Assembly: GCA_963748215.1 (NCBI GenBank)
Contig: CAVVHS010000001.1
Location: 12,539 to 76,538 of the forward strand
Reading direction: 5' to 3'
DNA length: 64,000 bases
Origin: an uncultured Gammaproteobacteria bacterium
GTDB lineage: Bacteria > Pseudomonadota > Gammaproteobacteria > UBA9214
Part shown: positions 8,037 to 61,176 of the stretch, in pieces
Position numbering within the stretch: the first letter of the stretch is position 1
How the letters are laid out: every line of letters starts with the position of its first letter
The notes under the pieces: model-generated
The model's database searches: none
Seen by the model: the letters and a program-made list of their open reading frames with translations, nothing else
Told to the model about the DNA's origin: nothing
Made by a program: the position numbers and the translations under genes

Positions 8037-8740
8037 GGCGTGCCGGTCAATGACTCGGCTTGTATGCCACAGTTACGGCTTGGTCCGAGGCGGTGACAGG
8101 GCTCAAACCGTTGCTTTCCGGCGGGCCAGCTGACCGGTAATCCACGCTGGAATGGATATCAACCTCCGGTGGCAGCGTCGCGTTCACGGACGCTCTCCTG
8201 TACGGCCATGTGTCCAGCCCCCGGCAAACGACACGATTGTGCTCGCACATGATACGGGTCAATGTTGCCTGATTCGTATCATGATTTGATGATTCCCACA
8301 TGAGTATTTGTGTTTATTGGTTGAAAAAACCGATCGATACAGTCCTGTCAGTGTGCGCGCAGAGTCCTGCTCTGCCTGTTGTGATCGTCATTTACGCCTG
8401 ACTTGCGTGTCATCGCGTTAAGGGCTGAATGGCAACCCAGCCACCCTGCGGATCGATGCCCCGGACCCGCAATTTCCGCGCACGACAGCACTAGTTGATT
8501 ACAGCGGCGCATCCGTCCGACCCGGTATGCGTCAGTCGGACATTCTCCTTAAGCCGGTCGGGCATTGCGTGTAATATAGCCACGGTATCCCCGGATCGCA
8601 TGTCATGCGGATGCCGGGGCAGGGTGCGAACTGATGTGCCGGATGGACCGTCGCGTCGATCCCGGCTGCATGGGTGCCTCCGACCTTCCCTGACCTGCCT
8701 GCGATGAGCCGTGATACGATCACGACTGACCTGGACTGAA

Positions 8741-11700
8741 ATGGACGACACGGTACACAACGACGCACAGGCACCCCCCGTCTGGAACCAGCAGCACGGA
8801 ACTGCCGATCTGTTCATCGATGCGGGGGTCAGACACCTCAGGCTGCGTGCCTGTGGCGGTGACGGTTCGGTGTTGTTCGATGACGTGCTCCCCGGCAACA
8901 GGGATCTGCGTGAACTCTTTGCTGCCTACCGGATCGGCGAGCGCTTCGGTGACGGCGCGAATGCGCGTGTCTATATTACCGGCAAGCTGGCCGGGACGGT
9001 GCACGATACCCTGGGCTATGGCAAGGTTATACTCCCGGCGGCCCTGTTCTGGATGGCGGCGCGGGATCTTCTCGCGCTACCCGAAAACAGTGGCGTCACC
9101 ACGCTGGCGATGCTTGACCTGTCGGCCTCGGGGTACCTGCTCGTCGGTATTGATCGCAGCGGGGCGCTCAAGGATGACCTGCTACTGCTCAACCCCCGCT
9201 GCGGTGCCGGATCCGGTATCAACCTCGATCGTGTTTTGCAGAAACTGGCGTTGCGCCGTGAAGAGGTCGACCCGCTGCTCTCTGCCTACCTGGGCGAGGC
9301 CGGACGGGAACGGCGCGAGGGTGTGAGTGTACGAGCCGACCGCTGCGGGGTGTTTGCCTCTTCGGCCACCATTTCAGACAAGAATCAGGGTATCCCCCTG
9401 GATATCGCCCTGGCCACGACCCTGAAATCGGAAGTGCTGAAAGCCTGCAGGAAATTACCCGGGGGTTACGAGAAGGTCTGTCTGACCGGACGCATCTTTC
9501 GCTGGCAGTACGCCAGGGATTGCGCCGAAGACTGGCTGCGCGCCAACAGCGTGCAGGCGATCGCTTTCGATACAGAGAATACGCAGGTACTGGAATCGCT
9601 GCGCACCATGGTGCAGCGCATCGGCGCCGACAGTCTTGCCCAGCCCGACCGGCGCCTGATCGCCCACGGCGAGCCGGAGGAGTATCCATCCTTTACAGAG
9701 CTGAAATCGCGCTACGAGGCAAATGGTCGTTATCTGCGCATGGCGGATGAGCCGCTCCCGCCGTACACACCACAGCGGCTGTCAGAGCATCCGGTCATCC
9801 TCGGTCTGGACGTGGGTTCCACCATGGCCAAGGCCGTGCTGGCCGACGCCGTGAGTGGCGAGAGCCTGTTCATGACGGCCTACAGCAATGCCGGCGACAC
9901 CATCGAGACCGTGAAGCAGCTCTTCAGGGATCTGCGTGCCAGCGGCGTGGAACAGCTCCAGATACGCAGCATCGGCATCACCGGTTCAGCGCGCTACCAG
10001 GTACAGCAGGCACTGGCACGCATCTATCCGGTGCTGGGCGAGCGGATCTCGGTGCTGGTGGAGAACTACGCCCATGCACGGGGTTCCATCGAGCATGCCC
10101 GGCGTCACGTCCGCCGGCTCAAGGAACAGGGCTGCACCGACATCAATGAACAGTTCTGTATCCTGATCGACATCGGCGGTGAGGACACCAAGATCTCGAC
10201 CATCGCCCTGGAACAGGCCGAGCTGTTCGATAATGCCATGAACCTGAAATGTTCCGCGGGCACCGGCAGTCTGATGGACACGCTCAGCTCCATGTTCGAA
10301 AGTGGCAGTATCGCCGAGGCCTGTGAGCAGGCGTATCTGGCCCCCCGTTCCTTTGCCATCAATGCCACCTGCGCCGTGTTCCTGATGGAGAATGCCAGCA
10401 AGCTCCAGGCCCAGGGAGTGCCCAGGGACCAGATACTGGCCTCGGCGAACTGGGCCATCGTGGAGAACATGGCGCGGTCCCTGTGGACCCAGCTGGAGTT
10501 GCCCGGCAACGCGGTGGTCCTGCTGCATGGACAGACCATGCTCTCGGAACCGCTGCCGCTGGCCGTAACCCACCGTCTGCAAACCTACCTGGGCCAGCCG
10601 GCGTATGCCCTGGTACCACCCAATCCGGGGCATCGCGCCTGTATCGGTCTGATTCGCACCCTGCAGCAGGCCTCGCTGCCGGGGTTTGCCTATGTTCGCC
10701 TGGATGATTTCATCGACACCCGGTTTCAGAAGCATGTCATCGTCTGCAAGGGGGCCGCCTGCGGCGATCCTGCGGCACGCTGCAACCGCTGCTCGCTCAA
10801 ATGTCATGGGACAGATGGTGAGAAGATCTCCTTTACCCTGGGAGGATGCACCGCGATCAATGAACTGCTGGGCAGAAAGGAAAAACACCAGACGCCGATC
10901 AAACCGCCGCGTGACGCCTACAAGGAGATCTGGGATTTCATCGACAGCCAGCATCCCAGGAGCGAGGATCCGCGCCGGCTGGTCATCCCGCGCAGTTTCG
11001 TTGTCTCGGAGTGGGCCTTTTTTCTGGCGCGGATTTTCGTGCAGCTGGGGATTCCGGTCCATGTCGACACGGTGCGCGAAAAGGATCTGACCGATGCCCA
11101 ACCCAACCTGAATATCGACACCTGCGCGCCGCAGATCGGTGCCGTGGGCCAGTATCAGCGCCTGGCTTGCGAGGCGCACGGCATGATCCTCGTCCCGCAG
11201 ATCGAGACCCTGCCGACCGGCGGGAAGAGTCGCGGTCTTGCCTGCACCACCAACCAGGGTGGCGTAGCGGTTGCCATGAATCTCGCGGGAATGGCCTGCC
11301 GCGCAGCGCGGTTCCACATCTTCCATCTCAATCTCGACCAGCTCGACGCCGGCTATATCAGTGCCCAGTTGCATGGCCGTCTCGACGTGCTGTTCCGTTT
11401 CTACGGCATCACACCCACGGCTGACGCGTTGTACACGGTCGTGGAACAGGCCCTCGAGGACCATCAGCAGCTGCGCCGGGACGCCGCCGACCTCGCCGCC
11501 GCTCTGGCCGAGGAGGCCCTTGCAGAAGGCCGCCAGGTGGCGCTGGTGGTCGGGCGTGAGTACATTCTCAATCCCGGCATCTATGACAGCCATATCCGGC
11601 GCCTGCTGCGCGACAAGCATATGACTGTCATACCGTCTTATGTGCTGGACATGGATCTGGACGAGGATTTCAGCCACATTTACTGGCGCAATCCCCATTT

Positions 11701-13558
11701 CATCGTGAGTCTACTGAACGCGGTGTCACATCGCAGCCTGCACCGGCGTTTGCACCATGAACGTCTGCGCGAGGTCTTTCGCCGCATCGAGACAGATGCC
11801 GGAGACAAGCTGTTACCGGTGGTTCAGGTCTCGACCTTCAGCTGTGGCCCGGACAGTGTCACCGCGCACTATATCTCCGAGATCATGAAACAGCGGCCAT
11901 TTCTGCTGATCCAGTCCGACGCCGTCATAAAGGAACTGGCGCATCTCGAAAACCGTGTAAATACCTATGTGAAGCAGCTCGAGCAGGGTTTGCACGGCAA
12001 GTTACATGTCGCAGGGCAGGAAGGCACCTTCGAGATGCGCAAGATCGACAGCCTGGCGAGTCATGAACCAATCAACCGCGAGACTGATGTGCTGTATTTC
12101 CCGACCCTGTCCGACAACCGCACGCTGTGCGCCGTGCTGCGCGGTGCAGGCTATACCTGCATCGATAACTATGACGATGCGACCTATGATCTGCAGGAGC
12201 TGGTCAAGGCCGGCCGCAAGGTGGCCGGTGATTCAGCCTGCACGCCGCTGGCTAGCATCTATGCCGACCTGCTTAGGTCACAGGAAGACTTTGTCCGGCG
12301 CAAGCAGGCCGGTGATCCCCTGCTTGCCGGAAAAAAGCGGCTGCTGTTCTATGACAGTCAGGGCACAGGACCGTGCCGTCAGGGCCAGTACCCGCATGTC
12401 CATAAACTGCTGCTTTACCGGTCCGCAACCGGCAGGAAGGCCGCTGACATAGACCATCCGTCCTGCAATGCGCTGCCCGGCGGAGGCATCTTCCAGTTCC
12501 TGATTGCCAAGGAGACCGATGGCTACAATGCCGGGTTCGAGGAGTGGGTGCTGCTGAGAGCCTACCAGGGCGCGATCCTGCAGGGGGTGCTGCATGGGCT
12601 GCTGTTCAAGGGCGCCGCTGTGTGCCGGGATTACGAGGAATACCAGCGTTTCCTCGCCGACTACCGGGCGCTCAAGCGCGAGATCAACGGACTGCTGGAG
12701 TCCTACCATGGCCCCGGCTCAGCGGGGCGCCGACTGCTCGGGACCATCGGTCTGGACAATCCCTTCAGCATTCCGTTTAAGTACCTGCTCTATCGTTTGC
12801 ATGGTCGGGAGTTCGCCAGGCCACTCAGGCGTTTTGCCGATACCTGGATCACGCCGCGACCACCGCCCGAAAAACCGCTGAGAATCTTTATCTCCGGTGA
12901 GGTCTACATGCGGGTATCCCAGGCCGAGGATATCCTGCGGATGCTGCTTGCCACGCTCGGATTCGGGCGTTTCACTCTCGGGCTGACGCCGTTGATGAGT
13001 TACCTGGAATACATGCTCGACGAAGCGGAGCTGATCAGCCTGGCTGCCATCGAGGTAGCCGAATCCGACGCCCGGCGCAAGGGTCGTTCGGACGGGCAGC
13101 ATGACCCGGACGCCATCCTGCAGCGGGAAAGACGCATGCTGCACAGTATCAGGCTGAAACGGTTCATGTTGCGACACATACTGGCGCGCCCTCTGTTCAA
13201 GGCGGCGAATCTGAAGATGCCCACGGCCAGCGCCGAGCTGATCGAGATCTCGAAGGAGCTGTTGCCCACACAACGGCCGGTCGGGGAACTGGCGCCCTAC
13301 GTAGGTGAAGCACTCCTGGAGTTGCGTGACGGCATCGATGTGGTGCTGAACGTGGGGCCAAACGGCTGCATGGTTTCCTCGATGGGCGAAGTGCTGACAC
13401 CGAGGATCATGCAGGCGAGCGGTGCGAAGTCGGGTCGAATACAGAACCTGTTCTCCGCCGATGGCGATGTCAATGAGGAACTGCTGACGCTGGTGACCCT
13501 GAAAGCGATGGGGCCGGAGCGGTACTACAACACAAAGTATGCCGTGCAGACCGCATGA
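8741..13558 (+). CDS. Large fusion of two BadF/BcrAD-type activator domains with DUF2229 and dehydratase/reductase-like domains (PlsAR/Ger-like); GTG 8711 is an alternative start
   Basis: LGLDVGSTMAK, IDIGGEDTK, MNLKCSAGTG, NATCAVF; first repeat keeps NPRCGAGSG and RCGVFA; later STFSCGPDS, GPCRQGQY, GEVYMR, GPNGCM. Confidence 0.82.
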   Translation: MDDTVHNDAQAPPVWNQQHGTADLFIDAGVRHLRLRACGGDGSVLFDDVLPGNRDLRELFAAYRIGERFGDGANARVYITGKLAGTVHDTLGYGKVILPAALFWMAARDLLALPENSGVTTLAMLDLSASGYLLVGIDRSGALKDDLLLLNPRCGAGSGINLDRVLQKLALRREEVDPLLSAYLGEAGRERREGVSVRADRCGVFASSATISDKNQGIPLDIALATTLKSEVLKACRKLPGGYEKVCLTGRIFRWQYARDCAEDWLRANSVQAIAFDTENTQVLESLRTMVQRIGADSLAQPDRRLIAHGEPEEYPSFTELKSRYEANGRYLRMADEPLPPYTPQRLSEHPVILGLDVGSTMAKAVLADAVSGESLFMTAYSNAGDTIETVKQLFRDLRASGVEQLQIRSIGITGSARYQVQQALARIYPVLGERISVLVENYAHARGSIEHARRHVRRLKEQGCTDINEQFCILIDIGGEDTKISTIALEQAELFDNAMNLKCSAGTGSLMDTLSSMFESGSIAEACEQAYLAPRSFAINATCAVFLMENASKLQAQGVPRDQILASANWAIVENMARSLWTQLELPGNAVVLLHGQTMLSEPLPLAVTHRLQTYLGQPAYALVPPNPGHRACIGLIRTLQQASLPGFAYVRLDDFIDTRFQKHVIVCKGAACGDPAARCNRCSLKCHGTDGEKISFTLGGCTAINELLGRKEKHQTPIKPPRDAYKEIWDFIDSQHPRSEDPRRLVIPRSFVVSEWAFFLARIFVQLGIPVHVDTVREKDLTDAQPNLNIDTCAPQIGAVGQYQRLACEAHGMILVPQIETLPTGGKSRGLACTTNQGGVAVAMNLAGMACRAARFHIFHLNLDQLDAGYISAQLHGRLDVLFRFYGITPTADALYTVVEQALEDHQQLRRDAADLAAALAEEALAEGRQVALVVGREYILNPGIYDSHIRRLLRDKHMTVIPSYVLDMDLDEDFSHIYWRNPHFIVSLLNAVSHRSLHRRLHHERLREVFRRIETDAGDKLLPVVQVSTFSCGPDSVTAHYISEIMKQRPFLLIQSDAVIKELAHLENRVNTYVKQLEQGLHGKLHVAGQEGTFEMRKIDSLASHEPINRETDVLYFPTLSDNRTLCAVLRGAGYTCIDNYDDATYDLQELVKAGRKVAGDSACTPLASIYADLLRSQEDFVRRKQAGDPLLAGKKRLLFYDSQGTGPCRQGQYPHVHKLLLYRSATGRKAADIDHPSCNALPGGGIFQFLIAKETDGYNAGFEEWVLLRAYQGAILQGVLHGLLFKGAAVCRDYEEYQRFLADYRALKREINGLLESYHGPGSAGRRLLGTIGLDNPFSIPFKYLLYRLHGREFARPLRRFADTWITPRPPPEKPLRIFISGEVYMRVSQAEDILRMLLATLGFGRFTLGLTPLMSYLEYMLDEAELISLAAIEVAESDARRKGRSDGQHDPDAILQRERRMLHSIRLKRFMLRHILARPLFKAANLKMPTASAELIEISKELLPTQRPVGELAPYVGEALLELRDGIDVVLNVGPNGCMVSSMGEVLTPRIMQASGAKSGRIQNLFSADGDVNEELLTLVTLKAMGPERYYNTKYAVQTA

Positions 13559-13933
13559 CGGCACGGCTGACCACGTCGGGCGATTGCCGTTGTACAAGTA
13601 CCGATCGGGATTGGGACCGTAAATCTCCAGTATCGTCCGGATACCCGTCTGTTATGCCGCAATCCCGCCTCGGTGGGGGGGATTGCCTGGGCAAGATGAA
13701 GCATTTCGAAAGCGCAAACTGACGGTTTTATCTGCTGGAAATACCGCAGCGTGACGGGCATCCATGACTATCTCCGGCCACGTTCCTGGGGGGCGAAGCA
13801 GGCGTTCCAGGCCCTGAAAACAATCGTTATCAGGAGCAGTGCCGTGTGATCTCAATGAGTTATTAAGGTCCGACCCTGAGGTCACTTGATTCCGAGAAGT
13901 TAGTCACGCCAGTAGCTGGCAGCGGCCCGGCAG

Positions 13934-15301
13934 TTATTCCGTCCCGGTGCGTTCGTCAGTTTGGATATTCCATGCAGTTATCTCGATGCCAAGTTGCGTA
14001 ACTCTGGAATTGATATCCTCAAGCACACCGTCAAGGAGAGTAGTGCGATGAGGTTCCTTGTCAACGCCGAGTTCCACAGTGCCGGTACTGAGCAGGCTTT
14101 GTATATCGTCCTGACCCAGCTTCGCAACCCGGTATCGCAGGATCTCATTTACCAGTTCATCAACCTTCATGTCGACGAGCTGTGATTGACCAGCTGTCGT
14201 TCGTGCATAGATATCCGTATCCACCACTCGCCATTGGGTGTCGTACTTCAAGGACAGCATATCCTTGGTCAGGGTAAGGAAACGGCCCGCTCCTCCAGTA
14301 CGGAACACGTCCTGTGTTTCAAGCGGTTGCGCGTCCTCGATCAGGGGTATCTTGAGCCGGATACCCGGCTCTGACTCGATGCGTACTGGCTTGCCGTATC
14401 TGGATATCAGGATTCTCTCTCCGGGTCCCACCTGGTATATCGCATTCCATACTGCGACACAGCCGAGGCCTACCAGCACTACCAAAGCCGCGGGCCACAG
14501 CCGGCGGGCGTTGAGGCCAGGCCGGCGGGCCATCGTGATGCGGTTTACGGCCGGTAGTTGCTGGTCCGACAGGGACCGGTACGACAGGGCAAGTATCGAC
14601 AACAGCACCAGCACGAAATAGGTATTCAGCACATCGGCGACGATCTCAATCCATAGGGAGCTGGTGTCTTCTTCAAAGGCGAGGTACAGGATGCCGTTCA
14701 GTAAACCGGGAATGAATATCAGCAGTGAGAGGAGTCGCAGCCCGTTGCCCCGGGACAGGCGCCAGATGCGCCCGGTAGCGATATCGTGCCCCACTGCTAC
14801 GGCTGGAAGCATGAGGGCGAAACGCACCACCGGATATGCCGCAATGACAACCACCAGGATCCACAGTATGACCGTTCCAGTGGCAAGCCAGGGACTCGGG
14901 CTGGTGATAGCCAGCAGAAAAAAGGATATCGCCGGCAATACCATGTACAGCAGGATTGCCATGAGCGAGGCCATCAGGAGACTCACGATCACAAGAGCCA
15001 GGAGATAGAGTCCATAGCGCTGCCAGGGGGTTGGCTCGGACTCGCAAGCCGTGGCACCCAGCAGCAGATGACGTTGAAAGTCCGCAGCACACCAGGCGAT
15101 CGCAGCCCATGCAGGCAGCAGGGTCAGTGATACCGCCGTCCCGTCCCACTGAAAATAGTTGCCCGCAAGCGGGAACAGGCAGGAGATGACCAGTGCGAGC
15201 AGGGGTCTCGCAAGCGCTTTCCAGGATGCCGCCTCGAGGACGAATGGCGCGAAAAGGGCATCTCCGAGAATCTTCCAGCTGGCTAGTTTACGGGTCGGCA
15301 T
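13934..15301 (-). CDS. Multi-pass membrane protein fused to a truncated HflC-like SPFH domain
   Basis: About 6 hydrophobic segments, then TM plus VGPGERILISRYGKPVRIESEPGIRLKIP...WRVVD...LGIEI (SPFH pattern). Confidence 0.7.
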   Translation of the reverse strand: MPTRKLASWKILGDALFAPFVLEAASWKALARPLLALVISCLFPLAGNYFQWDGTAVSLTLLPAWAAIAWCAADFQRHLLLGATACESEPTPWQRYGLYLLALVIVSLLMASLMAILLYMVLPAISFFLLAITSPSPWLATGTVILWILVVVIAAYPVVRFALMLPAVAVGHDIATGRIWRLSRGNGLRLLSLLIFIPGLLNGILYLAFEEDTSSLWIEIVADVLNTYFVLVLLSILALSYRSLSDQQLPAVNRITMARRPGLNARRLWPAALVVLVGLGCVAVWNAIYQVGPGERILISRYGKPVRIESEPGIRLKIPLIEDAQPLETQDVFRTGGAGRFLTLTKDMLSLKYDTQWRVVDTDIYARTTAGQSQLVDMKVDELVNEILRYRVAKLGQDDIQSLLSTGTVELGVDKEPHRTTLLDGVLEDINSRVTQLGIEITAWNIQTDERTGTE

Positions 15302-15676
15302 GATTGTTCGCTCCCCTGGTCAAGCAGACGCAATCGGGCAAGGTTTTGATGAAATCCATGGCGCGCAGGCAACAGCAATACGGACCGCAGGTATTTTCCC
15401 CATCATTGCCTGCCGGAGACTGATTGGCAGACCCGCGGCTCCGGGCCAGACCGTCTGGTCAACGCTAATCACTATCCATCGGAACAATCCGGAATTACTA
15501 CACAAATGCGCATCATATTGCCGTGGCCACCGAATAAGGGGCCGGATACATTTTCTGACCATCCTCTAGGAAGCTGGTAATAAGCAACCAATACGGTGGT
15601 GTCTGAGCCGCCTTTTTTCATTGTTGGTGTGGCTCCGTAGTTGCTGCACATCTGAGACCTTCACGAGTAAATCGGG

Positions 15677-15858
15677 AATGATCGGTTCTGGCCGATCCTG
15701 GCCCTGCACGAGACGCTTATATAAGATTTCGCTAACCAGCAGAAGTCGACTGCCCAAAGGCGACATTCCCCATATTCCTGTGTATGTCTCGAGCGTACTG
15801 AAGTCAGAAGTTCAGTAACCGGATACGGATCGACAATCTTCGACCCAAAGCAGAAGTT
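15677..15858. repeat. Cluster A of 12-6-12 imperfect palindromic sites (4 units)
   Basis: Units start at 15677, 15738, 15783, 15829, e.g. ATCGACAATCTT-CGACCC-AAAGCAGAAGTT. Confidence 0.6.
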
Positions 15859-15965
15859 TAGCGTTTGGTAAAATACCACGTACGGGTATAGTTTTTGACT
15901 AATCGGTTACAATGACAAAAGAAGACTGGTAATAATAACAATTAAGGAGTTTCGGATATTATCCC

Positions 15966-16587
15966 ATGAATAAATCACAACTGATTGGTGCACTTATTGC
16001 CACTGTCTTATCCTTAATCTCATTGTCAAGCCATGCGGCACTGATATCCAGGCTGGGCGGCCAAGCCGCCTACGACGATGTGTTGGGTATAACCTGGACA
16101 AACAATGCCGATATTGCCGGCCAAATGTCTTGGGATGATGCGAATACGTGGGCCAGCAACTTCGTTCTTGGGGGGGCAGGTTGGCGTCTTCCCGGCGCCG
16201 ATGTAAATGGTGATGAACTCGTGATTATCTGTGATGCTTTTACCGAGTCGGAATGTCGAGATAATGAATTGGATTATATATAAATATTATCTGAATTTCG
16301 GACTTACTGCCGGGTTTGACCGCACAGGTAACCAGACAGTTGGCTCCATAACACTGAACAATATCCCAGCGTTTCCGTGGTCAGCAACCGAATATGCACC
16401 TGATACAAGGCATGCCTGGTCATTCAGATTCGAGAATGGTGTTGTGACGACATTTTTTGATAAAGGTGTTCTGCTCTCTGCATGGGCTGTACATGATGGC
16501 GACATATTTCAAGTAGTGCCAATACCTGGATCTCTTTATTTGTTTGGTACTGGCCTGCTGTGGTTAATCGGGATAGCTAGACGCTAA
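15966..16587 (+). pseudogene. Secreted DUF1566/Lcl-like protein with PEP-CTERM-type sorting tail; frameshifted near 16280
   Basis: RBS AAGGAG, signal peptide, YDDVLGITW...GWRLP, WSATEY...AWSFRF...AWAVHDGD, VPIPGSLYLFGTGLLWLIGIARR; split across two frames at a (TA)4 tract. Confidence 0.82.
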
Positions 16588-16650
16588 ACTATGAAACACA
16601 GGCAGTACGTTTTAATGCATGTGTTGCGTCGATCGGTTGAGCTCATAGCC
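16581..16650 (+). mobile_element. IS30-family remnant (transposase C-terminus and right end)
   Basis: Translates TLNYETQAVRFNACVASIG*, like IS30-type C-termini (TLxYxTPAERFxxCVASTG*), followed by an IR-like end. Confidence 0.75.
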
Positions 16651-16818
16651 GATTTAGGAAATTTAAAAAGCTATTTCCTAACTATTGTTCAGGCAGCTGG
16701 GCGCGACACAATTTGCATTTCCAATCGGTATCCACTGATACGCGCCGCATAAGTAATTCTGATAAATAAATACTATTCGTATAGTCTATTACGAAATTGG
16801 AAGCGGCCAGGGGGTTAC

Positions 16819-17163
16819 ATGAGAATAATTTACATGATTATGGCAATAGTCGTGGTGAGTCAACCGGTGTGCGCGAATGAGGTAAGCAAACAACTTGAAT
16901 CAATGTCTTCTTCAGAAAGAGCTAACGCGCTGGCTGGTTTTTTGCAACAAAGTGGTCGAGATTGCAGCAATGTCTTTCGCATCTTTCTGCAGGGCCATGA
17001 TAGCGAAGATGTCGCGTACTGGAATGTTACGTGTAGTAATGGGCAGTCTTATAATATCCTGGTTAACGCAAATCCAGAGGCCAATACTGTAATCGTGGAT
17101 TGTATCAATATGAAAGCTCTTGCAGGAATAGAGTGCTTCCAGAGATTTACAACAGCCAACTAA
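16819..17163 (+). CDS. Small secreted protein with four Cys in the mature part, function unknown
   Basis: GGGGG RBS, signal peptide, AT-rich codons, YWNVTCSNGQSY motif. Confidence 0.75.
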   Translation: MRIIYMIMAIVVVSQPVCANEVSKQLESMSSSERANALAGFLQQSGRDCSNVFRIFLQGHDSEDVAYWNVTCSNGQSYNILVNANPEANTVIVDCINMKALAGIECFQRFTTAN

Positions 17164-17286
17164 CGCGAGAGATTCGATTCTGTGCCATGTACTCATCAAC
17201 GACGTAATACGATCAAATGGAAGTACCCTGTAATCGCCTGGTCGCAACTCCATGGCCACGGGGCTTTCTGTACATGGGGTATGGGG

Positions 17287-17422
17287 AACGGCAAATTATG
17301 GCCGAACTCGGAAGCTCCTGGGAAAATACCCGAGTAATTTAGTCAGGTGACCGGCAACGACCCATTACTGCCGGACAGAGCTGATTCGTTGAATGGCGGA
17401 GCTATACTGCAAAGCGGACCTC
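17287..17422. repeat. Cluster B of 12-6-12 imperfect palindromic sites (3 units)
   Basis: AACGGCAAATTA-TGGCCG-AACTCGGAAGCT; GGTGACCGGCAA-CGACCC-ATTACTGCCGGA; ATGGCGGAGCTA-TACTGC-AAAGCGGACCTC. Confidence 0.6.
17326..17350. promoter_or_regulatory. IscR type-1-like binding site
   Basis: ATACCCGAGTAATTTAGTCAGGTGA matches ATASYYGACTRWWWYAGTCRRSTAT at 22/25 by hand count. Confidence 0.5.
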
Positions 17423-17544
17423 GCCGGACGGGGGCTGATTCGGTCCTGACAGGGACGACGGCAATTGCGCGTGACATCTCAGCCCGGGTTCAATTACCAT
17501 AATCTGCTTACGAATCAATAACGTATTTTTCGAGGGGTCGCCCC

Positions 17545-18030
17545 GTGAGTTCCACGAAATTCAGTGCCGTTACCAGCATCCTGCTTGGCGTAGCAGCGAT
17601 CATCCTGCCTTACCTTTTCGGGACCCTTGCGGTGATGATGCTCGGCGGCGTGATGTTGTTCAGCGGCATCGTGGCGGTGCTCTACGCCAATGCCGCACGT
17701 AAGGAGGGAATTCGCGTCAGTGTTTTCGCCCCGTGGGTACAAGTGATCGCCGGCGTGGTTATCCTGATCTGGCCGGGACTGGCCTTATGGATGGTGGCCA
17801 TCATTCTTGGAGGTGGTCTTATCCTCGGCGGCATCGCCGGCCTGACGGACCTGCGCGACGCAGGGTTGGTCAACCCTCCCGTGTATCGCAAGATCGAACT
17901 ATGGTCGAGCATCGTACTTGGCGCACTGCTAATCGTTTTGGGAGGCGCAGGCTCCGCCATTCTGCTCGGGGTGGTCCTCGGCATCGCCTTGATCAGTACC
18001 GGCCTTCAACAGTGGCGCCTGGCTGCTTAG
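17545..18030 (+). CDS. HdeD/DUF308-like membrane protein
   Basis: Six short Gly-rich TM segments in the HdeD pattern; GAGG RBS, GTG start. Confidence 0.75.
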   Translation: MSSTKFSAVTSILLGVAAIILPYLFGTLAVMMLGGVMLFSGIVAVLYANAARKEGIRVSVFAPWVQVIAGVVILIWPGLALWMVAIILGGGLILGGIAGLTDLRDAGLVNPPVYRKIELWSSIVLGALLIVLGGAGSAILLGVVLGIALISTGLQQWRLAA

Positions 18031-18177
18031 CCCGCATTTCTCGCCGGGATAGGCGCCGCCCGATGACACACCGTTTGTTACTGAATGGGCATCACTTTCA
18101 TGATTTCAATTCTTTATGTCCGTCAACAGCCGCCCGGTGAGAAATGCGGGCTAGGTGCTTGACCAGAGGAATTCGCC

Positions 18178-18504
18178 ATGGAAAAGCAATTATTGCGGTT
18201 GCGTGTATTCGCGGCAGGCATGCTGCTGATTGTGGTTTCAGCCACACAGGCAGATGAAATCTGCTCGGATCAAATCGAATTTGAAAAAAACGGTTGGCAG
18301 CTGAGACCGGTGCAGCAGGCGATGGATATTTATCTGCGGGATCATCGCATGCGAGTGAACTGGCTGAAAGAACCCCGGCCACCCAGTGCGGTGGGCAGGG
18401 ATTATTATGAATGGCTCTGGATCGATGAATTCGGTGCAAGGATGAAAGCTGAACTGGTACAGCGTTACTGCGCCGGCGCGGCGGATTCCGGCGCCAGGGA
18501 ATAG
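18178..18504 (+). CDS. Hypothetical secreted protein
   Basis: GAGGA RBS, signal peptide ending ATQA, two Cys. Confidence 0.6.
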   Translation: MEKQLLRLRVFAAGMLLIVVSATQADEICSDQIEFEKNGWQLRPVQQAMDIYLRDHRMRVNWLKEPRPPSAVGRDYYEWLWIDEFGARMKAELVQRYCAGAADSGARE

Positions 18505-18559
18505 TGTCAGAAACAGCCTTCCGCCATCGTGTTGGCTGCAGTTACTCGCTGCCGGGATT

Positions 18560-18631
18560 GCATTGACTGCATGGCAGTTCGGTTCCGGTCTGCCGGGCCT
18601 GATCGGGATAGCAAGACGAAAGATTGCTGCA
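18560..18631 (+). pseudogene. Orphan PEP-CTERM-type tail remnant
   Basis: AWQFGSGLPGLIGIARRKIAA resembles AWLFGSGLLGLIGIARRKxAA tails; no upstream gene body. Confidence 0.65.
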
Positions 18632-18787
18632 TATGCGGCCGTCCGCTGTGGGTGCCGGCATGTCATCGGCAAACGGCTCGACGCCGGGCAGGGGTCCCTG
18701 GGTGAAGCTGATGGCCAGCGGCATGTTCTGCAGCCAAAGCGCGTTGACCAGGTCCTCGGCGATTTTCCGGTTGTCCTGTTGTGACAT
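18632..18787 (-). pseudogene. 5' fragment of a conserved gene (DUF169-like N-terminus)
   Basis: CAGGAG RBS, MSQQDNRKIAEDLVNALWLQNMPLAISF...MPAPTADGR, then runs into the PEP-CTERM remnant on the opposite strand. Confidence 0.5.
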
Positions 18788-18818
18788 GCTGCACTCCTGT
18801 TTGTTAACTATTGATGAA

Positions 18819-18895
18819 TGGCCACGGGAGCACACGGAATGACACGGAATGAATTTATGCGCGTTTCCGTGTCGTTCCGTGTGCTCCCGTGGCTA
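18819..18895. repeat. CCACGG-CACACGGAA-GACACGGAA long hairpin
   Basis: GCCACGGGAGCACACGGAATGACACGGAA ... TTCCGTGTCGTTCCGTGTGCTCCCGTGGC near-perfect inverted repeat. Confidence 0.88.
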
Positions 18896-18969
18896 TACAT
18901 TTGTTGTACGATGCAAAAACGCGGCACTGAATCCGGTTTTCTCTGTAATTGTCCGTACCGGAGTTTCGG

Positions 18970-19677
18970 TCATTGTTCCAGCAACGGCTGCAGCCAGCGC
19001 TCATACAGTACATCCGCCACCTGCTGCGCGCCACGGATGCGGGCATCGATATCGTCTGTCATCTGCGCCGCGCTCTGCACCGTGGGGCCGGGCGCATCGA
19101 GTTCGTGTCGATACCGCTGCGCCCATTCGCCGACCATGGGTGCAAGCATTTCGACATGGCACTGCAGGGCCAGTGTGTTGCCGATGACGAATGCCTGGTG
19201 ACTGCAATGCTCGCTTTCGAGTATGCACTCGGCACCCGCCGGTATGGAGAAGGTTTCGCCATGCCAGTGAAACAGGATGGCCTCGTCCGGTACACCCTGC
19301 AGCCAGCGCTGTGCCGTGGCGTTCGCGCGGCGGCGCACCGGGTGCCAGCCGATTTCCTTCACCGGGTTGCGGGTGACTGCTCCACCCAGTGCCTTGCTGA
19401 TAAGCTGGCCGCCGAGGCAGTGACCCAGCACTGGCAGATCAATCGCCTGCGCCTGGCGGATCAGGGCAAATTCCCTGTCAATCCAGGGCAGGGAGTCGTT
19501 GACGCTCATCGAGCCGCCCATGAATACCAGCCCGGAACAGTGCGCGAGCGATTCAGGTACGCTGTCACCGGCATCGATGGCGATCAGCTGCCAGGGAACA
19601 TCATGCCGTTCGAGCACCTCGGCCAGGTAACCGGGGCCTTCACAGTCGATATGGCGGAAGATGTACAGGGGTTTCAT
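18970..19677 (-). CDS. Type 1 glutamine amidotransferase (GMP-synthase-like)
   Basis: MGGSMSVND, LGHCLGGQL, HWHGETF, QCHVE. Confidence 0.92.
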   Translation of the reverse strand: MKPLYIFRHIDCEGPGYLAEVLERHDVPWQLIAIDAGDSVPESLAHCSGLVFMGGSMSVNDSLPWIDREFALIRQAQAIDLPVLGHCLGGQLISKALGGAVTRNPVKEIGWHPVRRRANATAQRWLQGVPDEAILFHWHGETFSIPAGAECILESEHCSHQAFVIGNTLALQCHVEMLAPMVGEWAQRYRHELDAPGPTVQSAAQMTDDIDARIRGAQQVADVLYERWLQPLLEQ

Positions 19678-19708
19678 AATCGGTCGATGTATTTCGCAGA
19701 TGGACGCG

Positions 19709-20365
19709 ATGAAGAATTCCACAATTATACGCATGCTCCTGCTGTCCGCGCTGCTGTTGTCGGTGCCTGAAATACGGGCGGCGCCGGACGTGCGCGTGGT
19801 CGGCCTGTTCAGCGGACGGGCCGTGGTTCAGATCGACGGCCGGCAGGCCGTGCTGCGGATCGGCGAAACCGGGCCGCAGGGTGTCCTGCTGCTGTCCGCA
19901 GACAGCGAGTCGGCGCTGCTGGAAATCGACGGAGAACAGATCGAGGCGCGTATGGATGGCCGGGTCACCGCACGCAAGCGTGAGGCAGCGGTTCAGGAAT
20001 TCAATGTCTGGCGCAACACCAGCGGCATGTATACCACGGTGGGCAGCATCAATGGCCTGCCCGTGTCGTTCCTGGTCGACACCGGTGCCACGCAGGTGGC
20101 GCTGAATTCGGCCCAGGCGCGGCGGCTGGGTATCGATTACCGCGTAACCGGCACCGAGGCTGCGGTTACCACGGCCTCGGGTGTGGAGCCTGCATGGATG
20201 GTGACGCTGGGCAGCGTCAAGGTCGGCGAGCTGGAAGTGCGCAATGTCGGTGCAGTCATCATCGAGGGGCCGCAGCCTGAAACTGCGCTGCTGGGGATGA
20301 GTTACCTGGGCCGTTTCGAGATCACCAACAGCGGGCAGCTGATGACACTCAGGAAAAAATACTGA
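19709..20365 (+). CDS. Clan AA retropepsin-like aspartic protease (TIGR02281 type)
   Basis: FLVDTGAT, LLGMSYLGRF, N-terminal signal peptide. Confidence 0.9.
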   Translation: MKNSTIIRMLLLSALLLSVPEIRAAPDVRVVGLFSGRAVVQIDGRQAVLRIGETGPQGVLLLSADSESALLEIDGEQIEARMDGRVTARKREAAVQEFNVWRNTSGMYTTVGSINGLPVSFLVDTGATQVALNSAQARRLGIDYRVTGTEAAVTTASGVEPAWMVTLGSVKVGELEVRNVGAVIIEGPQPETALLGMSYLGRFEITNSGQLMTLRKKY

Positions 20366-60786: not shown

Positions 60787-61176
60787 TGGTGGAGGCGGCG
60801 GGAATCGAACCCGCGTCCGCAAGTCCTCTGCCATCGGCTCTACATGCTTATCCCGGTCTATTGATTTAACTGGCTGCTACCCGACGGGCAGGGAAAACAA
60901 CCAGCGATTCCGTAGAGTTTTAGCGAATCAGCCCCGGACGTGCCTCATCGCGATCTTGTGAGAATCGACGCCTGAGTGTCCCGAATACCCAAAGGGCATA
61001 TAGGACCCGGACGCACAAGCACGGCTCCGGTCAGACGGCACCCTACTGGGGTTTAAGCAGCGAGTGCGTAGTTGTCGTCGTTGGCAACTAAGTTTTTGCA
61101 GATGGATTAACGAGGTCCTCTGCACCTCGGCATGCACCTCAGGTTTCGCAACCCACGTCGAAGCCAGGTCGCCCCC
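60787..61176 (-). ncRNA. ssrA: tmRNA; tag peptide ANDDNYALAA (61085-61053)
   Basis: 5' GGGGGCGACCTGGCTTCGAC; 3' GGTTCGATTCCCGCCGCCTCCACCA; tag frame gccaacgacgacaactacgcactcgctgcttaa. Confidence 0.97.

Follow-up and report, generated by a model that had tools for sequence, protein, structure and literature searches.

What is the repeated DNA that brackets a low-GC island in the genome of an uncultured gammaproteobacterium of the UBA9214 lineage, and does it mark a point at which blocks of genes are exchanged? The island lies in a stretch of 64,000 nucleotides (hereafter the window; positions 12,539 to 76,538 of contig CAVVHS010000001.1, assembly GCA_963748215.1), for which the original prediction had described seven palindromic units of 12-6-12 layout, resembling dif or loxP sites, in two clusters on either side of AT-rich cargo. 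What the two clusters consist of is a modular, directional repeat about 95 bases long, present as one copy of type A and one of type B. The prediction had cut these two genuine elements into pieces; its idea of TGGCCG and CGACCC repeats bracketing exchangeable cargo is partly borne out.

The repeat consists of a 5' arm (GGGAAYGKC), a TGGCCGA box, a swappable middle module, a CGACCC box and a 3' arm (GAC.TTC). In the alignments, the type-A order is GGGAAYGKC, about 6 bases, TGGCCGA, TCCCGGTCCTACA, a variable 6-mer, CTTATATAAGATTTCGCTAA, a variable stretch, GGCGGGAG, 1 base, CGACCC, 5 bases and GAC.TTC. The full-length type-A element of the window occupies 15673..15769 on the plus strand (68.8 bits, E 5.9e-20, with R1, a sequence-only covariance model built from 33 copies) and comprises the 5' arm GGGAATGATCGG, TGGCCG at 15689-15694, the palindrome CTTATATAAG at 15716-15725, a CGAC(TG)CCC box at 15747-15755 and a 3' arm ending CGACATTCC. 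Downstream on the same strand lies a partial second copy, read from the sequence as a 3' half only (15836..15859; CGACCC at 15841-15846 plus the 3' arm), and the same arrangement, with a 3' half after a full copy, recurs at L032:7752-7804 and downstream of L033:10006-10092. The type-B element, on the plus strand at 17263..17375 (GGGGAACGGCAA; TGGCCG at 17299-17304; CGACCC at 17358-17363, then the 3' arm), aligns with type A at the ends and both boxes and differs in the middle module. Two further forms, found in relatives, have the common ends and again differ in the middle: a short form that lacks the middle module and a fourth variant. When the island was compared with its own genome by blastn and nhmmer, three short pieces recurred, namely 15660-15790, 17263-17375 and an insertion sequence (IS) remnant at 16569-16674 (discussed later). 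Across copies the centre of the element is more highly conserved than its ends, and it is conserved in six genera; the centre holds the perfect 10-base palindrome CTTATATAAG, and the 5' box is GGAAC-N5-GTTCC-like. The inverted repeat formed by the ends is weak and only 7 bases long (GAAYGKC / GMCRTTC). A terminator-like hairpin with a T-run is found on the plus strand at 15595-15612, where no plus-strand gene precedes it; the type-A element lies about 60 bases further downstream, and similar hairpins precede several other copies.

Because arm complementarity, the consensus 12-mer, the full 30-base pattern and the shared hexamers all stand at background, the window contains no array of palindromic units. 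Arm complementarity in the seven predicted units is 4, 1, 4, 5, 5, 4 and 3 of 12, where all 63,971 window positions give a mean of 3.15 and about 19% of them reach 5 or more. The unit arms match the predicted consensus at 2-10 of 12 positions, with 9-10 reached by three right arms only. That 12-mer (two or fewer mismatches) occurs 7 times in the window as opposed to 3.8 ± 2.0 times in shuffled sequence, with 10 of 100 shuffles reaching 7, and the 30-base palindromic pattern (three or fewer mismatches) does not occur in the window. Eight hexamers are common to both clusters; shuffled sequences have 5.7 ± 3.0 in common, and two segments drawn at random from the window have 9.2 ± 4.6. Of the predicted arms, AATGTCCG is the 5' end of a single element and CGGACATT its 3' end, about 80 bases away. 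The units at 15677 and 15738 form the two ends of the type-A copy and those at 17287 and 17346 the two ends of the type-B copy; that at 15829 is the partial 3' copy, and those at 15783 and 17393 belong to no copy. The recurrence of TGGCCG (15689, 17299) and CGACCC (15841, 17358) in the same orientation had been read correctly, these being conserved boxes of a genuine repeat. On their own the boxes are not enriched: TGGCCG-N20-75-CGACCC has 177 matches in the genome and 246 in the reversed genome. A core site of the dif or loxP type consists of inverted arms of 9-13 bp around a spacer of 6-8 bp, and it has a cognate recombinase gene nearby unless it is the single dif of the chromosome; copies of the element number 25, at eight loci. 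The element has no inverted arms at either 6-base core, and no tyrosine recombinase adjoins any of its arrays, which refutes a dif- or loxP-like architecture.

While the predicted motif does not rise above chance, the element of about 95 bases is far from chance, and it is specific to one uncultured gammaproteobacterial family. The genome from which the window derives (G000; 3.52 Mb, nine contigs, GC 0.60) has 25 copies, 19 of type A (iterated nhmmer) and 6 of type B (nhmmer, window copy included); R1 matches it 21 times. Matches to R1 are present in all 37 genomes of the genus, at 1-31 per genome and with near-complete genomes among those that have a single match, and in 53 of the 54 genomes of the order, which consists of this single family, in all six genera. 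By contrast, when one copy served as a blastn query, 16 genomes that represent 16 other families of the class gave no match. A 20-base-specified pattern, which recovers 11 of the 33 aligned copies, returned 41 loci from a 185,579-species collection, 38 of them titled as metagenome-assembled or single-amplified genomes of Gammaproteobacteria or Pseudomonadota; two of the other three (L047 and L050) have strong R1 matches, and the third, a Methanofastidiosum locus, has none. The element resembles no IS end or Rfam family among those testable, and Rfam, at E values up to 1, gave no match in 15600-17500.

The copies are clustered in the genome, within low-GC accessory DNA as well as along its borders. 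A neighbouring copy lies within 5 kb for 24 of the 25, where 2000 random placements averaged 1.6 such copies and never exceeded 10, and 19 of the 25 lie in 3-kb windows of GC below 0.54, a class that makes up 8% of the genome. All seven multi-copy arrays (24 copies) have a single orientation, with copies spaced about 0.9-3.6 kb apart; the lone copy is at C5:98313. Copies at array ends stand at steps in GC, from 0.573 to 0.444 at the type-A element of the window, from 0.443 to 0.569 at its type-B element and from 0.635 to 0.479 at C7:349885. The predicted flanking of an AT-rich stretch is real, in that genuine copies of the repeat border low-GC DNA at about 15450-17400 (GC 0.41-0.49, against 0.58-0.62 on either side), and the expectation that sites would lie at the edges of variable genes agrees with the clustering of copies at the borders of low-GC variable DNA. 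The blocks between copies encode PEP-CTERM-like and other signal-peptide proteins, a sulfur-globule-like protein (weak Pfam match) and an IS element, and also zwf, a gnd-like gene, a Na/Pi transporter, a protoglobin, and SPOR, Sel1, DUF4403 and TetR proteins. By a hand tally from maps, about 8 of about 29 cargo genes run opposite to the elements. Replication strand does not explain the uniform direction, because the loci divide evenly between strands (four of eight on the G-rich and four on the C-rich strand); one contig of uniform skew carries both orientations.

Two of these loci deserve mention in their own right. A 6.2-kb island with three elements and two PEP-CTERM-like genes (L036; G000:C8:296000-302500) has no counterpart in the relatives G045, G044 and G051, and its end adjoins a stretch of 48 bases, present with 100% identity on two other G045 contigs, that may be a tRNA or other repeat. 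In L037, a gene at G000:C5:97829-98243, with a type-A copy just downstream of it, has a weak match to a sulfur globule protein in Pfam (24.4 bits, cut-off 26.7), which hints at sulfur storage by the organism.

We compared five element-bearing loci with their closest relatives (G045, G044 and G051), in which the flanks have 85-97% DNA identity. At the type-B site of the window, homology with G045 begins directly after CGACCC (17363), the 5' part of the element being missing and other genes lying to the left (J1), and G051 has a short element in the same place, with homology beginning at the CGACCC box (J2). The type-A copy of L031 is identical to G044 through CGAC and then unrelated, with no 3' arm (J3), and against G045 the break is at the 3' end of the element (J4). 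In L033, homology with G045 begins at the second CGACCC box (J5), while a further break lies 7 bases before the type-A element (J6). The type-A copy of L032 is identical to G044 through CGACCCAAC, after which the 3' arm and the downstream sequence differ (J7); against G045 the break is 123 bases before that element (J8), and the type-B copy of the same locus is identical to G045 through TGGCCG and then unrelated (J9). Finally, L034 departs from G051 60 bases before the element (J10). Seven of the ten junctions therefore fall inside the element. The proposal that breakpoints would coincide with the 6-base cores stands for four junctions at or within 3 bases of CGACCC (J1, J3, J5 and J7) and for J9, right after TGGCCG, with J2, at the short element of the window site, likewise beginning at the CGACCC box. 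Half elements are seen in J1 (3' arm only, in G045), J3 (up to CGAC, in G044) and J9 (up to TGGCCG, in G045), and they are the part of the pattern that shared conservation does not explain. Element locations differ between the relatives, and a gene for a Gly-rich protein is found at different places in G000 and G051, where homology begins 45-141 bases beyond the elements, at 74% identity. Contigs from four metagenome runs over 13000-20000 showed no joint that skips the island, although contigs cannot reveal rare excision products.

Our preferred reading, to which we give slightly less than even confidence, holds that the element serves the gain and loss of islands, as a recombination or junction site. 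Blocks of genes would be gained, lost or swapped at the element by exchange near the conserved boxes, such that the 5' part through CGACCC would remain with the left-hand DNA and the 3' arm with the right-hand DNA; core genome would then give way to island at the array ends, and the scars left behind would be hybrid or half elements. This reading fits best because it accommodates the uniform direction despite mixed cargo strands, the GC steps, the box-level breakpoints, the half elements and the chimeric types. A putative enzyme would need to act in trans, because no recombinase gene lies in or beside the arrays. The genome has five PF00589 matches, none within an array, and three full tyrosine-recombinase genes, one of which is an integron integrase; its Xer-like recombinases are likewise encoded away from the arrays. 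The gene-capture idea of the original prediction is partly supported: it survives in its broader form, by the family-specific element that is far from chance, the island edges and the breakpoints, and has lost its dif/loxP layout.

Several observations weigh against a junction site, and our confidence is held down because no enzyme was found, there is no site-like dyad and there is no direct evidence of excision. No recombinase or transposase gene adjoins any array in this genome. The sequences on either side of CGACCC (89 copies, spacers of 6-9 bases) are no more complementary than shuffled partners, and no stable hairpin is formed, the z-scores of DNA single-strand folds ranging from -3.1 to +1.0 with 10 of 12 strands above -2. 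The junction loci were picked by hand rather than sampled at random; three of the ten junctions lie 7-123 bases outside the element, and the breakpoints have no single position but scatter over about 15 bases, with one more at the other box. Because copies share their core, alignments of two element-bearing loci will tend to run as far as the last conserved base, no matter why the break arose. All of the genomes are metagenome assemblies (bins), in which repeats can produce false joins. The arms of the window's type-A copy are complementary to each other, a match that frequent exchange at CGACCC would erode, and some blocks carry housekeeping-type genes (zwf and the gnd-like gene).

It is possible, although we think it somewhat doubtful, that the element is instead a selfish or structural intergenic repeat comparable to enterobacterial repetitive intergenic consensus (ERIC) sequences or miniature inverted-repeat transposable elements (MITEs), which spreads or persists in non-essential intergenic DNA, accumulates in accessory islands and is a passive substrate for homologous or illegitimate recombination, with no dedicated system. 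Like the ERIC/IRU (intergenic repeat unit) sequences of Enterobacteriaceae, it is an intergenic repeat of about 100 bases with a weak imperfect dyad, conserved across a family, variable in copy number (here 1-31 within one genus) and in location among relatives, and it has internal insertion/deletion variants; one copy has been interrupted by an IS. The dyad is apparent in the consensus, a weak nested imperfect palindrome in which 68.6% of cells pair, a share that falls to 27-44% if the partner is slid. Pairing between 5' and 3' ends is no stronger for cognate than for non-cognate ends (-7.96 and -7.24 kcal/mol, respectively; 1579 of 20000 permutations at least as low). Gene context also accords with a passive repeat. 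We called neighbouring open reading frames (ORFs) crudely for 65 full-length type-A copies (G000 plus fetched loci), and among the 50 with both neighbours callable, 20 lie between convergent genes and 7 between divergent genes, a convergent placement similar to that shown by REP (repetitive extragenic palindromic) and ERIC elements. Random insertion does not, however, predict the uniform orientation of seven of seven arrays, and we know of no report of ERIC elements in uniform-orientation arrays that bracket islands. The greater conservation of the centre than of the ends, the conservation of that centre in six genera and the half elements cut at boxes also argue against a passive repeat, as does the absence of target-site duplication: none of 55 copies is flanked by a shared word of at least 5 bases (mean 2.71, against 2.73 for mismatched partners). 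A MITE was rejected, there being no target-site duplication and only the weak 7-base terminal inverted repeat. REP elements and REPINs are short palindromes (20-40 nt), in inverted pairs, that flank the gene for a REP-associated tyrosine transposase (RAYT). We rejected such a pairing as well: the element is about 95 nt long and has no hairpin, and the five Y1_Tnp genes of this genome (C3:109 kb; C9:72, 316 and 334 kb; C2:112 kb) all lie away from the arrays. Under either reading, junction site or passive repeat, the dif-like palindrome model should be dropped.

That the element is cis-regulatory, an operator or upstream activating region for a family-specific regulator, or a transcribed leader, of the secreted, PEP-CTERM and other genes of the islands, we regard as unlikely. 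Its strong conservation over six genera, including the CTTATATAAG palindrome and the GGAAC-N5-GTTCC-like box, would suit such a role, as would the many copies that lie 60-300 bases upstream of co-oriented signal-peptide or PEP-CTERM genes and, within co-directional gene pairs, the 19 copies in the gene sense as opposed to 4 in antisense. Excerpts from Haft et al. (2006; PMC1569441) state that the regions upstream of many PEP-CTERM genes are unexplained, and the element resembles the upstream site attributed there to PrsR and sigma-54 in being a conserved intergenic sequence of about 100 bases near PEP-CTERM genes in Proteobacteria. It differs from that site in lacking both motifs as worded in those excerpts, TTTACA (0 of 55 copies) and TGGYAY-N5-TTGC (-24/-12; 0 of 55), and in lying also near unrelated and convergent genes. 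The 20 of 50 copies that face a convergent gene, together with copies downstream of core genes such as OTCase and G6PD, argue against regulation; Pfam confirmed convergent-facing copies at EAL/HDOD, SPOR and TetR genes, and a fourth copy opposes both of its neighbours, DUF4403 and Sel1. The window copy contains no sigma-70-like hexamer pair, the candidates (15865-15892 and 15935-15962) lying downstream of it. RNA structure is also unsupported: RNAalifold predicted no pairs on 15 or on 138 copies, and a hand-built nested structure paired 68.6% of cells, compared with 67.2% in shuffled alignments, with covariation scores of 0.119 and 0.105. A structured cis-regulatory RNA was rejected on these grounds and for want of an Rfam match.

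The attC sites of integrons carry R'' (RYYYAAC) and R' (GTTRRRY) consensus boxes, and their size range includes about 95 bases. This genome has a chromosomal integron with a low-GC cassette array and canonical attC repeats of about 72 bp (G000:C2:85000-98338). Its true attC sites (C2, about 85-96 kb) have typical R boxes (ATAAC...GTTRRR) and strong dyad symmetry; the element is unlike them, in keeping with the claim that the system is distinct from attC integrons. Neither RYYYAAC nor GTTRRRY is matched by the element in either orientation, its 5' ends being sequences such as CACGAAC and CGGGAAT and its 3' ends GTTCAG, GTTTAG and GTACAG. The integrase (443.7 bits, cut-off 265) has one in-frame TGA and is encoded on a contig other than those of the arrays. 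In excerpts from Cury et al. (2016; PMC4889954), a CALIN (cluster of attC sites lacking an integron integrase) is defined as two or more attC sites that share a strand, are separated by less than 4 kb and have no intI in the vicinity, and the arrays have this form, all seven being of uniform strand with copies about 0.9-3.6 kb apart and intI on another contig. As in the attC and CALIN systems described there, short direct-orientation sites (about 60-140 bases) lie between blocks with no adjacent integrase, and the left part of each site would accompany the block upstream of it, the right part the block downstream. Unlike attC, the element has neither R boxes nor a hairpin, is conserved at its centre rather than its ends and breaks at CGACCC or TGGCCG, not at G|TT; its blocks, unlike attC cassettes, are 1-3.6 kb long, often multigene and with some genes on the opposite strand. 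That the element is a divergent attC, its arrays being CALIN clusters serviced by the genus's integron integrase, is therefore very unlikely: a length of about 95 bases, the AAC and GTT triplets at its ends, the mostly <4 kb spacing on one strand and an integrase above cut-off in 18 of 37 genus genomes, this one included, are consistent with it, but the unmatched R boxes, the lack of a stable hairpin, the breaks at CGACCC, the dissimilar canonical array of the same genome, the in-frame TGA and the presence of the element in 37 of 37 genomes, compared with 18 for the integrase, are not.

Returning to the junction site that we favour, it can also be compared with the dif/pdif sites of Xer recombination, in which short conserved sites likewise flank accessory modules that contain no recombinase gene; the element differs from these in having no 11-6-11 inverted-arm core, in its length of about 95 bases, in its direct orientation and in its presence at 8 or more loci. 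A more specific proposal, which we consider fairly unlikely, is that this sulfur-oxidiser-like family has an undescribed system of gene-block exchange, in which directional sites of about 95 bases, distinct from attC, dif and IS ends, would be recombined near the boxes by a host-encoded enzyme in trans, building and reshuffling arrays of secreted, PEP-CTERM and accessory genes at many loci. Were the elements true recombination sites, they would represent a second, integron-independent organisation of exchangeable gene blocks, operating at many loci at once in a lineage for which sediment and soil metagenomes are the only source, and the boxes would provide a direct handle on the enzyme. Even as passive repeats, they would still mark the borders of accessory islands, explain breaks in metagenome contigs and serve as a family-specific marker.

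Between the two elements, the low-GC island (15450..17400) contains two genes on the plus strand. The first (15966..16587), identified from ORFs and Pfam, encodes a secreted, Lcl_C (DUF1566)-like protein, with an Lcl_C match (E 8.2e-5) that falls under the curated Pfam cut-off and a PEP-CTERM-like tail, a call that rests on our reading of the tail VPIPGSLYLFGTGLLWLIGIARR and on a regular expression of our own. Its reading frame changes near an A/T-rich run (about 16270-16300), giving two parts (15966-16283 and 16231-16587), and it is probably either a frameshift pseudogene or the product of an assembly error. The product of the second gene (16819..17163) is 114 aa long, has an N-terminus resembling a signal peptide and belongs to no Pfam family. 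An IS30-like end remnant, found by nhmmer, lies at 16569..16674 on the plus strand, confirming the "IS30 end" of the original prediction. It matches C8:239556-239662 (E 1.2e-10) and C5:159920-159824, the former covering the 3' end of an ORF of 389 aa that encodes HTH_38 and rve domains, plus about 34 bases past the gene; we take this domain pair to indicate an IS30-like transposase. Metagenome contigs diverge beyond 16640, within this remnant. To the right of the island, a gene for a DUF308 membrane protein (17545..18030, plus strand; Pfam) forms the conserved flank that served as synteny anchor, and 8 of the 36 other genomes in the genus have it; to the left, an accessory SPFH/Band-7 gene (13934..15301, minus strand; Pfam) is found in 1 of the 36.

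Other features of the window were also noted. A very high-copy short repeat occupies 18030-18154, between the DUF308 gene and the next gene, where summed contig depth is 100-280, compared with about 8-20 nearby, and many contigs have loose ends (18028/18043 and 18154). Part of it is inverted in G045, and it may be of REP/REPIN type; the genome has five Y1_Tnp genes. A hairpin-like repeat at 18812-18900 gave weak Rfam matches resembling miRNA precursors (30.5 bits, gathering threshold 62), with loose ends at 18812/18817 and 18849 and, in two runs, a joint that skips 18849-18975. Upstream of the island, a 1615-aa ORF (8711-13558) fuses BcrAD_BadFG ATPase and DUF2229 (CoA-enzyme activase) domains, and a tmRNA gene with the tag peptide ANDDNYALAA is located at 60787-61176.

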